A stretch of 64,000 nucleotides of DNA, from NCBI GenBank assembly GCA_963705305.1, contig OY970067.1, positions 4,288,001 to 4,352,000 of the forward strand, in the 5' to 3' direction. Made by a program: the position numbers. The stretch is from an uncultured Methylomirabilota bacterium. Its GTDB lineage: Bacteria > Methylomirabilota > Methylomirabilia > Methylomirabilales > 2-02-FULL-66-22. Numbering within the stretch: the first letter of the stretch is position 1; the number at the start of each line of letters is the position of its first letter. This document shows positions 30,001 through 54,000 of the stretch, piece by piece.

Positions 30001-33000
30001 TTCGTCACATCGTTGACGCACCCGTTGAGATCCGCCCCCTCCATCTTGTACTTGTTCACCCCGACCAGCACCGCCTTGTTCATTCCCTCCTCCTTTCCTT
30101 TGCCCTTGCCCTTTCCTCTTGGCTCCATGCCCTATGGTCTTCGCCTCTGCGCTTTTCCCCGACTCTCCGTCTCCCCGGTTCCCCGTCACTCCGTTTCTCC
30201 GGCTCTCCGATTCGCCCCCTCGCCCCCTCTCCTTGTCTCTCCCTCGCTCGTGCTCCTCCCTCCGCACCGCAGGCTGACCCCTGACCCCTGACCTCTGACT
30301 ACTAATCTTTGCTCCATGCCCTTGGCCCCTTGCCCCATGCCTCTTGCCTCTTTATCTTTTCTTTACACTATCTGAAATACCACATTCCTCACGCCCCGTC
30401 CAGCCGCACGGGGAGCCGTTCCATTCCGGACCATGTGCACCATCACAGGATGAAATCAGCTCAACTGGGTCCGATGCCAGGACGGGGATAGCTTTGATCA
30501 GGTGAGGGGATAGGGAAGGAAACTAAGAGGGGTGGGTCGATCCGATCTCGGCAGGTGCCCTGACCGCGCATTCGGCGGGATGGCAAGGCGGTATCGGAAT
30601 CAGGAGGGGCCGCGCTTGGCGCTCTGCTCTATGCTCTTCGCCCTGTGCGCCTCAACGCGAGCCGATCAGGTCCAGGATCCTGCGGGTCACGGCCTCTTCG
30701 AGCAGCACTTCGTCCGTCAGCAGATCCACGAGGACCGGTACCTGCTCCACAATGGTCACTTTCCCGCGGACGGTGAGGGAGATCGTTCGAACATCGCACC
30801 GCAGCTCGCTCATCTCCGCGGCCTCCTTCCACGAAAATCTGCGCTCCAGCGTTCCGGGTGAAGATCTGGCCGGTAGGTTGTCACCAACTTCACTCGCTCA
30901 CGAACAATCCCGAACGCCATATGCCATGGTCGCCCCCCGTTTCTCGCTTTCGCCGACTCTCCGGCTCTCCGCACCAAAACACGGAACCCAGCGCGCCGGT
31001 CCCCTATTCCTGTGTGTAGAATTCTCTTCGAAGATCATCCTGGGGAACGAAACGGCTCGCCTGCCGAATGATCGCCTAGAGGGTGCCCACATCCAATTCT
31101 CTGTGCTGCGGGAGAGTCAATGTCTGCACGCTCCCCGAAGGTGCCACTCGTCTCAGCTTTACGTGACTCCCTCGTTGAGCGTGGACCCGAAAGCCAAACC
31201 GGGCGAGAATGGTGATCACGTCGTCGCCGGACAGCCGTCTAAGCTTGGGCACCGGCCGGCTCCAGCTCCATGGTCACCAAGATCGTGGGGTGCGGGACGA
31301 GGCCGAAGTCAGCGGCGTTTTCCCCTTCGAGGTGGAGGGCGACGGCCTCCTGCAGGTTTGCAAGGGTTTCGTCTACCGTCCTTCCCTGGGTTACGACAGC
31401 CAGCTCCATGCATTCGGCGACATACCAGTCGTCGCCCCGGCGAAGCAAGGCCTTCACGGTGTGCTGCAGCGTCATAGCTTTCTCCGCTCTCCTCTCAAGT
31501 GCTCTTGCCGTGCCCCCGCTCGCGACCGACCAACGGAACTGTCATCGCTTCTTACGCGTGCCATCGGAGTCTTCAGCATTATAAGCCATCCCGGCCCAGT
31601 CGCAAGGTTCTTCCTCCAGCCGCTCCTCTTCCTCAGCACCCCTGCTCCCGAGCGCAGCGGTGCGCCCCCTCCCTCCGGGGTGGAGCCCCTACGGGGTGGA
31701 ACCCGGACCGCAGGCTGACCCCTGACCTCTGACCTCTGACTACTAGTTTTTGCGCCATGCCCCCTGCTCTCTGCCCTCTGCTCTTTGCCCCGTGCCCCGC
31801 GCCCTATGCGCTTCGCAATCTGGTCAAAAACGTCGAATGTCCCCTAAATTCACAGGTTGGGGACGGTCTTGAAGTCCACCTGGATGGAGCGTGGTCCCAG
31901 CATGGATGCCCTTGACCTGTGATAAGAGGGCTGGTACTGTCTTGACCGTCTAGACGGTCTAGGCAGCCTTAGTCGTCTTGGGGGGCGTTCAGATGAAACC
32001 GGAAAGGAAGATGGTCTACATCTCTGAAGAGGCTCATGGACGGCTCAAGCTCTTGGCCGCCCGCCGCAATCGGCCAATGGGGGAGCTCGTCGACGAGCTG
32101 GTCGCGCAAGAGCTGGCCGACCTCGTCAACCCCTGGACCGGTCCCGAGGGCCTGATGCTCCAGCAGAGCATCTTGGCGCGGATCTGGGATGATCCCGCCT
32201 TGGATGTGTATGACCATGATTGAGCTCCGGCGGGGTGACGTCGTCCTCGTAAGCTTTCCATTCGTCATCCCCAACCATACCCAGCGGAAGCGACGGCCGG
32301 CCGTGGTCGTTCAGTCCGATCGGTACAACCGCCGGCGAGCGGCCGTTATCGTCGCCGCCATCACCAGTACCCAGGGCTACGCCCACCTTCCCTGCAAGCT
32401 CCTGGTGGCGAAAGACACGCCTGAGGGCCGCGAGGCCGGTCTCCGCCTGGATAGCGTGGTAGACTGCCAGACCCTGGCCACGATCCCCCGAGGGGAGATC
32501 GTCCGCCGTCTCGGCAGATTTCCCCAGGACGTGATGCGTCGTCTGGACCAAGCCCTCCAGGACGCGCTGGGCTTGCCAGTGGTCTGAAATGCTGGCGAGG
32601 AGTGTACGATTGGACGCCTGGGCGAACCTACCGTCCGCTGGCAGATTGGAAGCCGACAGGGACGCGTTGGAGTATGCACGGATGGGATGGGGAGGGGCGG
32701 CGTCAGATTTGGGACTGGCGGAGAGAGGAAGACAAGCAGCAAATAAGGTAATTACGGTTACAACGTCCCCCCGACGCTAGTTGGGGTCAGAGCTGTGCGG
32801 ATAAATATGCTGTACATTGTTGACCGAACCCTGATGGAGCATTTCTTTGCGACCTTTGCGTCTTGGCGTGAGAATATTCCGGGTCTCTCTCCATTTCGCA
32901 TTTCGAACTTCAAATTTCGAATTTTCCTTTGCGCCTCTGCCCCCCCCACTCGCCCCTGCGCCTCTTCGCCTCAGCGCCTCTACGGCCCCCTTCCCTTTAC

Positions 33001-51000: not shown

Positions 51001-54000
51001 CGTCTTGAACTCCACCTGGGCGGACCGGCAGGCCCCGATGATCCGGCGCATCTGCTCGCCGGTGGCCGAGGGGATGGCGATCAAGAGCTCGTGGATCGCA
51101 TGCGTGTGGCACAACCCGGGCAGCTCGTCGATCGTCCCCAGCACCTTCTTGCCGTGGATGCGCCGGCCCTGCCTGGCCGGATCGTCGTCCGCGGGCCCCA
51201 CCGTACCGTCCGTCCCTCTCCTCGGAAGGTCTTGACATGTGTTGTCAGATCTGCCAACATCGCAATTACCGGCGGCCCAAGGGAAGGCAAGATACGATGA
51301 CTCGGAAGACACGACCAATTTCGTGGGTCAGCGCGGCGCTCAGGGAATTCCAGGCGTTCCCGGAGGGGGCCAAGGCGATTTGTCTTGCCGCTCTCACGGT
51401 GGCCGCTGAAAACGAGAAAGCTGACATTGCGAGCCGATGCACGGCATGGGCGCGGGTGTATTTGAGATCGCTCTGCGGTTTCGGAGCAATGCGTTTCGAG
51501 TCGTCTATCCCGTGCAGCTTGGAGACGACATCTGGGTGCTCCATGCGTTCGAGAAGAAATCGAAGCGGGGCGCCAAAACTCCGGGGGGCGAAATCGATTT
51601 GATTAAGAACCGCCTGAAGAGATTGAGGGAGATGTTGCCATGAAAACAAAGGGGGAAGTTATGCGCGGCAGCGGGAATGTTTTCCGCGACTTGGGCCGTG
51701 AGACCGCGGATATTGAGCAGTTCAAGGCAATCCTGGCCGCGGAAATCATTAAGACCCTCAACCGGGAGCGCTTGACCGTGCGGGCCGCGCAGGCGCGCAC
51801 GGGCATTGCTGCGGCCGATTTCTCGCGCATTCGGAACACGGACCTCGGCCGGTTCACCGCCGACCGCCTCATGGCGACCCTCAACCGACTCGGGGCGCGG
51901 GTGGAGGTCAAGGTCAGGGTGCGGCGCGCCGAACCTGTCGCGCACCGCGCCACAGCCTAGCTGTCACGTTGGCTCGTTCACTGCGCAGCGCAAAGGCTGA
52001 AGACGGCGGTGGGCTGGCAGGGGCAGCGGAGTCAGGGGTGAGCAGAGGCTGGAAGGAGGGGAGTTGGAAAATAAAGTCAATAATGTCGCAACGTCCCCTA
52101 AACGTTCTGCCGTTCGACGTTCCACGTGCTCCGCTCGATGTTCCTAACCGCCGCACGTCGAACCGCCGCACCTAGAACCGTCTTTCCCCCCACCTCGCAC
52201 CGTTCTCAACCGCAGCACGTCGAACCGTCTCCTACCGCAGCACCCCGGAGGCCCAGCCGAGGATCCCGAGGCCCGCACCGGCAGTGTGTAGCAAAATTCG
52301 AAATGTACTTTCCGAGAGGACATCCAGGGGTTCGTCACAATTCGAAATCCGAAATTCGCAATCCGCAATGTCCTTCATGCTGCCACTCGTCCAGCCCCGC
52401 CACCGCCATTGCCGTCGCCAAGGCGCAGGCGATGACCAGCGTTCGCTGCCGGCCGTTGCCATTCGTCGCAGATCGGGACAGCAGCCAGCCGAGGACCGCG
52501 TACGCCGCCAGGTGGATGCTTTTCCGAAGAAGCAGGCGCAGCACGTCCCCGTCCCGCATGGGCAGCGCATGGGAGGTTCCAATCAGAAAAATCACGCCGA
52601 CCCAGGCGAGAGTCAGCAGCCAGAGTCGGCGGGGATCAATCAGATTGGAGATTCGCATTCGGGAGACCGAGAACAAATAACCGCACTATCATCCAACCTG
52701 GTGCACGTGACCTGCCCCCTCCTCAGAAATGAGTTGCCACTAGGAGTCCTATGGACGCACCGGTCAGCCTCACCGCGAGAACCCTAAGCAGTATGCGCCG
52801 ATGGTGGCCTGGAAGCGACTCTTCACCCCCACCTTTAACCAACATTACGAGGCCCACGACGAGGCCTAAAAATGGCAAAACGCGCAGAGCCAAATTCATC
52901 AACCCAGAAAGTTGATCCATGACTATACCCTTGTCGAATAGCAACGAATCAGTCGGCTTACCACCAGATCCGTTTCCTCAAGGAGGATAAACTCGAACCT
53001 CCCCAGGCGAGAGTTAGCAGCGATAACCTACGACGCTCGGTCAGCTTCGAGATTCGCATTCCGAACTACATCCGTCCGACTGTTCTCCTTTGCGCCCTTT
53101 GCGTCTTGGCGTGAAATGCGAGTGTTTTCCGTGTCGAATTTCGAATTGTCTTTCAGTCATCCGCCGTGCCGGCGCTGGTTTCGGCGGCCGATGGCGAGCG
53201 CCTGAGCAGCTCCTGCACCCGCTTCTCCACGATGCTGACCGGGAGGGGCTTGTAGATCCGGTCGGCGGCCCCCAGGGCCGCGACTTGGTCCATGCTGAGC
53301 ACCTCGGCCGAGTCGGCCAGCAGGAGGATGGGCACCCCCTGATGCCTGAGCTTCTCGCAGAGCCGCTTGATGTTCGTCCGGGGCAGATGGTGGTGCAGGA
53401 TGACGAGGTGGAGGGGTGCATCTTTCAGGTGCTGGAGGGCCTCCCGCTCGGTCTCGGCCTCCAGGACGAGGTAGCGGGCCTGGAGGATCCGTTTCAGGGT
53501 CTTCCGGGTGTAGGGGTCCGCCTCTACTACCAGGATCCGCTCGGTGCGCCGGGGGCGACGGGTCGGGGGCGGGGCCCCATCCACGTAGCCCGGGACCAGC
53601 GCGGCCAGCATGGCCGAGAGCGCTCGCTGATCCTCGGTGTCGGCATGTTTGAGCAGATCCTGGATCCCGGCCTCCAGCTTACCGAGGTCGTTCGGCTCCG
53701 CCTCCACGACCATGATCTTCTCGTGAAGGGTGGGCAGGACGCGGGTCTCGGAGTTCAACAGCTCCTCGAACAGCTTCTCCCCCGGCCGGACCCCCGTGAA
53801 GGTGATCTCGATGTCCCGCTCGGGATCCAGGCCCGAGAGGGCGATGAGGTCCTTGGCCAGGTCCAGAATCCGCACCGGATCGCCCATGTCGAGGACGAAG
53901 ATTTCCCCGCCCTCTCCTTGCGTTGCCGCCTGGAGGACGAGCTGGCTGGCTTCCGGGATGGTCATGAAGTAGCGCAGCATGTCGGGGTGGGTGACCGTGA

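Follow-up and report, generated by a model that had tools for sequence, protein, structure and literature searches.

The island and its modules

The window, a stretch of 64,000 nucleotides analysed as a whole, holds an island of ~21 kb that is dense in toxin-antitoxin (TA) and defence genes and is split into modules by 12 copies of a 26-nt site. All 12 lie on the minus strand, spanning 32745-52098, with TA or defence modules between them. The sites share the head GGGGACGTTG, followed by one of two tails, A (TAACCTTAATTACCTT) or B (CGACATTATTGACTTT); the tail reads as two direct half-repeats of ~9 nt that match at 7/9 positions. The A-type sites are site 1 (32745-32770, 1 mismatch), site 3 (34265-34290, exact), site 5 (37321-37346, 1 mismatch), site 7 (40936-40961, exact), site 8 (47566-47591) and site 11 (50553-50578, exact). 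The B-type sites are site 2 (33030-33055, 2 mismatches), site 4 (35785-35810, exact), site 6 (38678-38703, exact), site 9 (48006-48031, 3 mismatches), site 10 (49067-49092, 2 mismatches) and site 12 (52073-52098, exact), the final one ahead of a capD-like gene. A search of the window for the head gave 11 matches, every one on the minus strand, where shuffles predict 0.19. The A-type 26-mer matched six times with at most 3 mismatches and the B-type 26-mer also six times, and shuffled sequence gave zero matches for either. The match at 55654-55663 was counted as chance, being a bare head without a tail within a sugar-transferase gene.

Gene content was assigned with Pfam profiles, scanning ORFs of at least 62 aa. 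Two kinds of MazF lie between the sites, each with a small ORF upstream: a MazEF-like pair on the plus strand (31978-32587; PemK toxin at 32189-32587 behind an 81-aa ORF; copy at 46799-47408), and a second PemK toxin at 33422-33886 (plus; antitoxin ORF upstream; copy at 49459-49923). They are joined by a HigBA-like Gp49/HTH_37 pair (35149-35672, plus; copy at 51437-51960), an RHH antitoxin with a PIN toxin (39959-40779, minus), and an MNT (NTP_transf_2) and HepT pair (48217-48848, plus). Three DUF433/DUF5615 pairs were found, at 36417-37077 (minus, with its own promoter-like site at 37093-37066), 37834-38483 (minus) and 38609-39591 (plus); in the third the DUF433 domain occupies aa 137-191 of a long ORF, so the true start should lie later. 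A small AF2212-like gene (47600-47827, minus) carries its own promoter-like signal, TTGACT-17-TACTCT. HicAB, listed in the survey, was not seen among the ORFs scanned.

Other cargo includes an 863-aa AEP-TOTE primase with a ResIII helicase (41950-44541, plus), a defence-type gene, and a VanZ-like gene (35897-36280, minus), which belongs to a flank found again at 52208-52637 (100% and 93%). A hairpin after this gene precedes site 4. Two gene fragments are also present: a chorismate synthase C-terminus (41155-41394, minus; profile positions 273-326 of 327) and a capD fragment (34278-35030, minus; copy at 50566-51318). The latter corresponds to aa 184-394 of the full gene, to which it is 94% identical in amino acids and 93% in nucleotides. 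The full capD-like gene (53153-55444, minus; Polysacc_synt_2 plus a C-terminal receiver domain) closes the polysaccharide operon as its final gene and bounds the array. The unit from site 2 down to site 1 is gene-less and holds heptamer repeats only.

The uniform orientation noted in the survey holds in both arrays: 12/12 sites are on the minus strand here, and 7/7 on the plus strand in a second array 43 kb away (genome positions 4383165-4392689), on the same replichore. Sites 1-4 and sites 8, 10, 11 and 12 are respective duplicates within repeated blocks, leaving ~8 independent sites, for which the chance of a single strand is 2 x 0.5^8 = 0.008. Solo sites across the genome number 47 plus and 44 minus and show no preference tied to the replichore (21+/16- and 19+/17-). 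Cargo tends to point one way with respect to the site, but its direction is not fixed (~20 vs 6 in our tally). Within 1 kb of 121 sites, DNA that makes up 3.4% of the genome, lie 5/5 HepT, 4/7 PemK and 4/15 PIN genes, an enrichment owed mostly to the two arrays (10/13).

Relation of the sites to Y1 transposase elements

The genome has 16 Y1_Tnp matches, and inward-facing pairs of head-plus-tail sites, ~1.05-1.08 kb apart, enclose Y1 genes. The sites are of the same kind as these inverted ends, as the survey had proposed. The B site agrees at 26/26 positions with one end (1467877) of the element spanning 1466802-1467877, the very element to which it had been attributed. This element encodes a 334-aa protein that matches REP_Tyr_transpos below the cut-off (48.2 vs 80 bits). 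In metagenome locus L009, an A-type end (25/26) borders a Y1_Tnp gene, and the protein of this locus has a weak Bac_DnaA_C match. Hence one site kind does lack a cognate as far as this genome is concerned, in which no A-type Y1 gene was seen, but the cognate exists in another lineage. Neither Y1 genes nor Y1 remnants lie within the window, in line with the survey.

We identify the sites as orphan (solo) terminal repeats of TIRYT/TIRtron elements, in which inverted repeats enclose a gene for a Y1 (HUH) tyrosine transposase; the head's 5' edge forms the element tip, and the family-specific tail follows. The survey's label, RAYT-type, rightly pointed to Y1-element ends but should read TIRYT/TIRtron, since these are non-palindromic terminal inverted repeats and not REP hairpins. 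Studied Y1 enzymes, such as those of IS608 and E. coli TnpA-REP, recognise hairpins. The sites have no hairpin: DNA folding there gave z near 0 in 15/16 tests. Identification as integron attC sites, REP hairpins or MITEs was rejected in favour of non-palindromic Y1-element ends.

Joints, conservation and turnover of modules

For each type, 28 non-duplicate pairs were compared across the site and 60 nt on each side. Identity within the site was 0.962 (A) and 0.940 (B). Identity of the inside flank was 0.560 (A) and 0.589 (B) and of the outside flank 0.567 (A) and 0.592 (B), the level of random 60-mers (0.584 +/- 0.038). Conservation is thus confined to the site, and the joints at the head are sharp. 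Homology of the capD fragment (93%) halts at the first bases of the site 3 head, the fragment ending exactly there, and the block copies regain identity 4 nt before the heads of sites 1 and 8. Genes end 0-25 nt from the head edge: besides the capD fragment, the AF2212-like gene stops 8 nt before the head of site 8 and a PIN_3 gene stops 4 nt away; an adenosine deaminase gene starts 1 nt from a head edge. The tail side is always gene-free for at least 59 nt.

Modules turn over quickly. Three blocks are duplicated: 30659-32774 at 45480-47595 (99.86%), 33002-34158 at 49039-50195 (99.91%) and 34162-35895 at 50450-52183 (99.83%). Over 5007 nt the copies are separated by 7 substitutions, but they show one exchange of site-bounded modules (1444 vs 228 nt), which confirms the indel reported by the survey and leaves the MNT/HepT pair in the second copy only, and two further indels. 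Site 2 has a hybrid leader, which matches that of site 10 for 57 nt and then that of site 9. In metagenome run X1, one contig, built from k-mers and possibly chimeric at a repeat, joins 35776 to 38670 and so brings together two sites 2.9 kb apart: the sequence flanking site 6 on the outside continues into the site 4/12 leader, the two having 35 nt in common. Neither circles nor pairs of empty and filled sites were seen. Every rearrangement observed can arise by homologous recombination, the alternative that the survey itself had named, and the 35-57 nt of identity are compatible with it.

Related arrangements occur elsewhere. The same TA pairs in relatives have 65-84% nucleotide identity, with homology limited to the gene pair. 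One relative (G020, contig C4) has four of the segments, of which three are TA pairs, in a different order; heptamer repeats are present, and no GGGGACGT-type site was found in this island. TA pairs can therefore be shuffled without these sites, and together with the shared pairs this island indicates that homologous recombination could explain the rearrangements. Sites with other tails also border such cargo: two TTGACTCAG-type sites enclose an XhoI restriction-modification pair and two CTTCC-type sites a Phd/PIN_3 pair, while DUF433/DUF5615 and DUF7718/DUF5647 pairs adjoin CAACCTTATTTACCTT-type sites on metagenome contigs L008 and L012. The adenosine deaminase unit, with a B site on either side, is the immediate neighbour of the B-type Y1 gene.

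Origin of the array and comparison with known systems

Our preferred explanation, which we rate as evenly poised, is that the array may have grown in one direction, with modules added and exchanged at transposon ends on which Y1 enzymes would act in trans. A TA and defence island would thus be built in one direction at element tips. The unit would run from head to next head: the head and its tail come first, then at least 59 nt of non-coding leader, and finally cargo that reaches the following head. A Y1 enzyme encoded elsewhere would cut one strand at the head edge, and a pair of sites in the same orientation would define a segment open to loss, exchange, or insertion beside a resident site. 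Insertion resembling that of IS608, 3' of a short target, would preserve a single site orientation. Homologous recombination between sites and leaders would be superimposed on these events. In favour are the agreement with Y1-element ends, the uniform orientation, the sharp joints, the conservation limited to the site, the quick turnover, the enrichment of TA genes near sites and the recurrence of the build with other tails and in other organisms. Against it stand the lack of Y1 genes in the window and of an A-type Y1 gene in this genome, the missing hairpins, rearrangements that homologous recombination can also produce, the site-free island in G020, the variable cargo direction, the concentration of the toxin enrichment in the two arrays, and the failure to see circles or pairs of empty and filled sites.

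The sites might instead be passive relics, TIR-type repeats that spread as REPs do and landed or survived in a dispensable TA island with no site-specific enzyme acting today; we find this doubtful, though well short of negligible. Duplication, unequal crossing-over and gene conversion among repeats and heptamer-rich leaders would then have given the array, its orientation and the indels. The recent large direct duplication, the hybrid leader of site 2, the short identities at the joints, the site-free shuffling in G020, the lack of a nearby Y1 gene and the genome-wide occurrence of heptamer repeats all fit. However, decay should hit site and flanks alike, whereas the 26 nt stay 94-96% identical amid random flanks, and duplication alone would have copied the flanks too. 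Both arrays are uniform in orientation against a mixed genomic background (47:44), unrelated DNA is joined exactly at the head edge, and the same build recurs with four tail families, also in other organisms.

Accretion at element tips must also be set against a regulatory role, which we regard as improbable: the half-repeats of the tail would be operators for a domesticated Y1 HTH domain or another regulator, or the sites would be promoter parts that control or insulate TA modules. Direct repeats in a site conserved amid unrelated flanks suit such a role, and at the 5' end of Y1 genes the site overlaps a promoter-like TTGCnn-17-TGcTAnnnT (as read from the sequence) with an ATG 6-9 nt on. But the -10 part is missing from the array sites, and 0/4 promoter-like and 0/4 terminator-like matches in 32000-41500 fall on a site. 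Likewise, cassettes have their own promoter-like signals, the distance from site to gene start varies from 1 to ~490 nt in variable direction and on both strands, and genes truncated at the head are left unexplained. Least credible by far is an integron cassette array without integrase (CALIN) in which the sites are part of attC: the one-directional, TA-rich array with a gene-less unit, a site 3' of the cargo in most units and an intI-like gene in the genome invite it, but the sequence around the sites lacks hairpin potential, no inverted partner occurs within 300 nt, and these 26 nt also form the inverted ends of Y1 genes. The intI-like gene (853432-854377; TIGR02249, 317.8 bits vs a cut-off of 265), which corrects the survey's finding that no NCBIfam row names an integron integrase, is disrupted by both a frameshift and a TGA; it is 3.47 Mb distant, and no repeat array adjoins it. 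The site pattern is real and orderly, and it may mark a gene-shuffling mechanism.

Sedentary chromosomal integrons and other integron or CALIN arrays resemble the island in being one-directional arrays of small modules with many TA systems, one site per module, gene-less modules and fast-changing content. In contrast to them, the sites here are not attC hairpins, the array has neither platform gene nor common promoter, the enzyme assigned is a Y1 HUH transposase and not a tyrosine recombinase, and cargo direction is not fixed. REP/BIME sequences are likewise short intergenic repeats tied to a single- or few-copy Y1 gene with the same flanking repeats, and the Y1 proteins here match the RAYT (TnpA-REP) profile NF047646, REP_Tyr_transpos. 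However, these sites have no palindrome, hairpin or GTAG head, and the proteins fall below the family cut-off (48.2 and 69.8 vs 80 bits) and are twice as long. IS200/IS605 elements (IS608, ISDra2) and their PATE derivatives share Y1 HUH chemistry and strand-specific ends that are not mutual inverted repeats, and their insertion 3' of a short target could give head-to-tail order; unlike the Y1 elements here, with inverted ends and hairpin-free orphan sites, they have subterminal hairpins and transposases of ~150 aa. The rolling-circle elements IS91/ISCR likewise use HUH enzymes, which mobilise neighbouring DNA from one end and so assemble mosaics of cargo genes, but these are Y2 enzymes encoded beside the cargo, where this island has no such gene.

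The closest match is the TIRtron/TIRYT class, described in 2013 by Di Nocera, De Gregorio and Rocco (PMC3733652) and placed by Quentin et al. 2018 (PMC6006769) as subclass 2.1 of TnpA-REP-like Y1 proteins; the parts of these papers that deal with the class report no biochemical activity. Their accounts of it describe single TIRs, dimers and groups, and not one-directional arrays bounding TA or defence modules, interleaved tail types or genes cut at the tip, and GGGGACGT, the head of the present sites, agrees with the published GGGGWSAS motif at only 6/8 positions. As in those accounts, Y1 genes of ~330 aa are flanked by long non-palindromic inverted repeats starting with a GGGG motif, orphan TIR families are moderately abundant and some are clustered, and the C-terminal HTH extension has its counterpart in the weak Bac_DnaA_C match of the L009 protein.

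Orientation and neighbourhood of the sites

In the window the head GGGGACGTTG is found 11 times, without exception on the minus strand, whereas shuffled sequence leads one to expect 0.19. Complete 26-mers, in which the head is followed by a tail, number six of the A type and six of the B type between 32745 and 52098, and neither type was matched in any shuffle. Position 55654 carries a thirteenth head, tailless and within a sugar-transferase gene. Across the genome there are 123 exact heads, compared with about 24 expected. The survey had described arrays of same-orientation sites among toxin-antitoxin (TA) cassettes, and our counts confirm it: all 12 sites of the first array lie on the minus strand and all 7 of the second (genome 4383165-4392689) on the plus strand. 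Since three blocks of the first array are duplicated at 99.8-99.9% identity, its sites reduce to about eight independent ones, and the placing of 8/8 on one strand has p = 0.008, given a genome-wide split of solo sites into 47 plus and 44 minus. The GC skew switches near 4.1 Mb and both arrays are on the same replichore, while solo sites show no replichore bias, indicating that the uniform orientation is local to each array. Replication-strand bias is therefore rejected as its source.

Gene content between the sites was read from Pfam. The first array holds two kinds of MazF with an upstream small ORF, a Gp49/HTH_37 pair, three DUF433/DUF5615 pairs, an RHH-PIN pair, an AF2212-like gene, an MNT/HepT pair, a defence-type AEP-TOTE primase-helicase, VanZ, and fragments of capD and chorismate synthase. 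It starts just past the 3' end of a capD-like gene, the last of a glycosyltransferase/epimerase operon, and on its other side are caspase fragments, AbiEii and a TnsB/TniB/TniQ transposition module. The capD-like polysaccharide dehydratase (53153-55444) has 763 aa and a C-terminal response-regulator receiver domain. At the far array edge a caspase-domain gene (29274-30128) is split in two adjacent ORFs. The Tn7/Tn5053-like module (18416-25542, 5 kb from the array) encodes a 905-aa rve/Mu-transposase-C protein, a TniB-like ATPase and two TniQ proteins; no convincing inverted ends of such an element, whose cargo the TA island may be, were found. The second array has all its TA pairs (HEPN/NTP_transf_2, HepT/MNT) on the minus strand; a 3' fragment of gmd, 87% identical to the intact copy of that gene within the array, stops 24 nt short of the first site.

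The DNA within 1 kb of 121 sites, 3.4% of the genome, contains 5/5 HepT, 4/7 PemK and 4/15 PIN genes, and 10 of these 13 toxins belong to the two arrays. Other tail families have the same build: an XhoI restriction-modification pair is flanked by two TTGACTCAG-type sites, a Phd/PIN_3 pair by two CTTCC-type sites, and TA-like pairs adjoin CAACCTTATTTACCTT-type sites in metagenome contigs. Sites of the TTGACTCAG type also adjoin each of two reverse-transcriptase ORFs of group II introns, both 463 aa long and with identical Pfam scores, near genome 1.877 Mb (extracted locus L014, 721-2109) and 4.099 Mb (L040, 3786-5174).

Kinship with the ends of Y1 elements

The genome has 16 Y1_Tnp matches, none of them in the window. 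Many heads pair up, facing inward at a spacing of about 1.05-1.08 kb, on either side of genes whose products begin MPRQPRL. B-type ends at genome 1466802(+) and 1467877(-) bracket, as inverted repeats, a Y1-like gene of 334 aa at 1466828-1467859, and the B site of the array is identical to the element end at 1467877. A-type ends were met as inverted repeats in the metagenome locus L009 only (604+ and 1681-), with a Y1_Tnp gene between them; this genome showed no Y1 gene of the A type.

In the part of PMC3733652 that we drew on, TIRtrons (TIRYT) are RAYT-like genes with long flanking inverted repeats starting GGGG, accompanied by orphan repeat families, and the repeats start with GGGGWSAS; the head GGGGACGT agrees with this motif at 6 of 8 positions. 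The class corresponds to subclass 2.1 of Y1 proteins, which carry a C-terminal HTH, according to the corresponding part of PMC6006769. A RAYT-like protein with a C-terminal HTH extension, as in that subclass, is what we find, with NF047646 (REP_Tyr_transpos) scores below the 80-bit cut-off: 48.2 bits for the B-type protein (aa 6-133 of 334) and 69.8 bits for the L009 protein, which also matches Y1_Tnp (1.9e-7) and, weakly, Bac_DnaA_C (6e-4). The array sites are orphan TIRYT ends.

At genome 1465626-1467877 (extracted locus L015, 1626-3877) two B sites in the same orientation flank an adenosine deaminase gene that directly adjoins the B-type Y1 gene, a layout that is a one-unit array attached to its transposase. 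At the 5' ends of Y1 genes (for example genome 1467877, 482076, 8023 and 739500) the site overlaps a promoter-like TTGCnn-17 nt-TGcTAnnnT with the ATG 6-9 nt further on, and this arrangement of motifs suggests that Y1 transcripts may be leaderless; the -10 part is absent from the array sites. At many Y1 element ends, part of the flank and head is repeated in tandem in the outer flank, 11-14 nt upstream, for example AATAGGGGACGT and then AATA joined to GGGGACGTTG (among others at genome 480998, 503106, 766730 and 3156913; extracted loci L023:221 and L028:342), so that these ends hold iterated head motifs.

Anatomy and turnover of the units

Identity within the 26-nt site is 94-96% across 28 non-duplicate pairs per type, and the flanking 60 nt, inside and outside, agree no better than random sequence, showing that what is conserved is the site itself and not a longer decayed element. 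Leaders of 57-285 nt are common to some site pairs. On the head side unrelated DNA follows immediately; at site 3 (34265-34290, A type) homology to capD stops within the first bases of the head, and genes come very close, with the AF2212-like stop at 8 nt, the PIN_3 stop at 4 nt and the adenosine deaminase start at 1 nt. The tail side is always free of genes for at least 59 nt and often carries heptamer repeats, which also occur elsewhere in the genome. Such asymmetry of the two sides is the look of a transposon-end tip. By tally, cargo operons read toward the tail, with the site at their 3' side, in about 20 cases against 6 that read away from it; the direction is preferred, not fixed.

Heptamer tandem repeats of the GGGCAAA, TTCGAAR, GACYACN and AATGCGG types fill the intergenic DNA of TA islands with or without sites, both here and in the relative genome G020 (tracts at 32880-33020, 40860-40930 and 48960-49060, and in extracted loci L013 and L030). 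A TCTCACGCCAAGA box recurs 14 times in the genome. Intact capD contains a head-like motif, GGGGACGATG (9/10), preceded by AACGTCC, at 54239-54265. The motif falls within conserved NNVRGT codons, some 26 nt past the cut that site 3 makes in the capD fragment, and may reflect target mimicry or chance.

The duplicated blocks are 30659-32774 with 45480-47595, 33002-34158 with 49039-50195, and 34162-35895 with 50450-52183; over 5007 nt, 7 substitutions separate the copies. The gene-less unit of copy 1 corresponds in copy 2 to the AF2212 and MNT/HepT units, and the borders of this difference fall 57 nt inside a B-site leader and 4 nt before an A-site head; two more indels lie in leaders or flanks. 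In the sequencing run X1, a contig of the 99% class at depth 5 joins 35776 to 38670 through 35 shared nt, thus connecting the outside flank of site 6 (38678-38703, B type) with the leader of sites 4 and 12 (35785-35810 and 52073-52098, B type). Either the joint is a naturally occurring 2.9-kb variant from site to site, or the assembler made a chimera at a repeat. Other X1 joints (46485-47941, 39825-35782) and loose ends were set aside, being short-sided or derived from the second array, and several bins of the stretch have no cover in this run, at a depth of 2-7 that is too low to mean absence.

Our best reading, to which we give an even chance, is that modules accrete in one direction and are exchanged at transposon tips served in trans. 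Its main rival, which we consider somewhat unlikely, holds that the sites are passive repeats acted upon by homologous recombination. Speaking for the rival, relatives carry the same TA pairs at 65-84% identity with homology limited to the pair, and contig C4 of G020 has four array segments (three TA pairs and one other) reordered among heptamer repeats without any such site. The distribution of the head-plus-tail pattern also tells against a dedicated mechanism: 7/251 phylum genomes have it, all of this genus, with 41 copies here and at most 4 in each other genome, though most of these assemblies are fragmented and an apparent absence carries little weight. An exact-site scan gave 1 match in genome_contigs and 5 short contigs in metagenome_contigs. 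HigBA relatives adjoin a Y1 gene in three genomes (G006, G007, G008) and a head-like site in G014; in G018 neither was found within 1.5 kb. For an empty-site comparison, a capD orthologue was found in a single one of 12 genomes of the genus, where it sits at the edge of a contig, and the genes of the adenosine deaminase locus are not syntenic in relatives.

Comparison with known systems

Solo sites with no inverted partner, hairpin or Y1 remnant exclude attC sites, REPs, MITEs and IS200/IS605 ends. For attC/CALIN, no R''-L''/L'-R' hairpin folds and the sites are identical with Y1 ends; folding of eight sites, each with its outside or inside flank, gave z between -0.9 and +2.0 in 15 of 16 tests, and the one value of -4.4 is the hairpin after VanZ. 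No integron integrase lies beside the array, and PF00589 has no match in the window. The survey had named none in the genome, which needs correction: a single TIGR02249 match exceeds the cut-off (317.8 bits against 265, positions 96-315), at genome 853432-854377, 3.47 Mb away, in a broken integron-integrase-like gene with its N-terminal part in another frame and one TGA inside. No obvious repeat array accompanies it. REP/BIME units are rejected for want of a hairpin and because the unit is not self-complementary, though the head contains ACGT/GACG (a REP unit is a palindrome of 20-40 nt tagged GTAG or CGTC). As to MITEs, whose two inverted ends would enclose a short non-coding body, an inverted head-like match (at most 1 mismatch) lies within 300 nt inside for 2/19 array sites, against a background of 0.24 per 300 nt, and no inverted partner was found in 30000-45500. 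IS200/IS605 would bring subterminal hairpins and a Y1 gene (about 150 aa in that family), neither of which the units contain, and tblastn of a Y1 protein against the window detected no decayed Y1 gene (best E 4.4). Xer modules are rejected by orientation, one direction per array here versus alternating dif-like 28-nt sites around pdif modules. Rfam gave no match in 28000-56000 at E <= 0.1, and none of 8 promoter or terminator consensus matches in 32000-41500 falls on a site.

A further reading, unlikely in our judgement, is that orphan TIRYT ends are the cis sites of an integron-like cassette system run by HUH (Y1) chemistry. In this scheme a trans-acting Y1 enzyme would introduce a single-strand nick at the head's 5' edge. 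A unit of site, leader and cargo, running head to head between two sites of the same orientation, would then leave as a single-stranded circle and integrate at the head edge of a different resident site, so that TA and defence modules would gather in banks that run in one direction and change fast.

We found no published description of such arrays in the literature on Y1/RAYT/HUH with TA or cassette arrays and on TIRYT/REPtron, taken mostly at the level of abstracts. TIRYT/TIRtron elements are widespread, and the portions of PMC3733652 and PMC6006769 consulted report no demonstrated activity. Here, orphan ends stand at the exact seams of a defence/TA island, intact amid changing surroundings, and mark the places of module exchange between two near-identical copies. 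If passive, they provide a clear case in which the short ends of mobile elements serve as portable stretches of homology and remodel defence islands next to surface-polysaccharide genes. If active, they would assign a role to a large group of "transposase-like" genes and would offer, besides integrons, another way of building cassette banks by an unrelated mechanism. Among known systems the likeness is to TIRtron/TIRYT elements, directly for the B site, which is the inverted end of a Y1 gene in the same genome, and through L009 alone for the A site.
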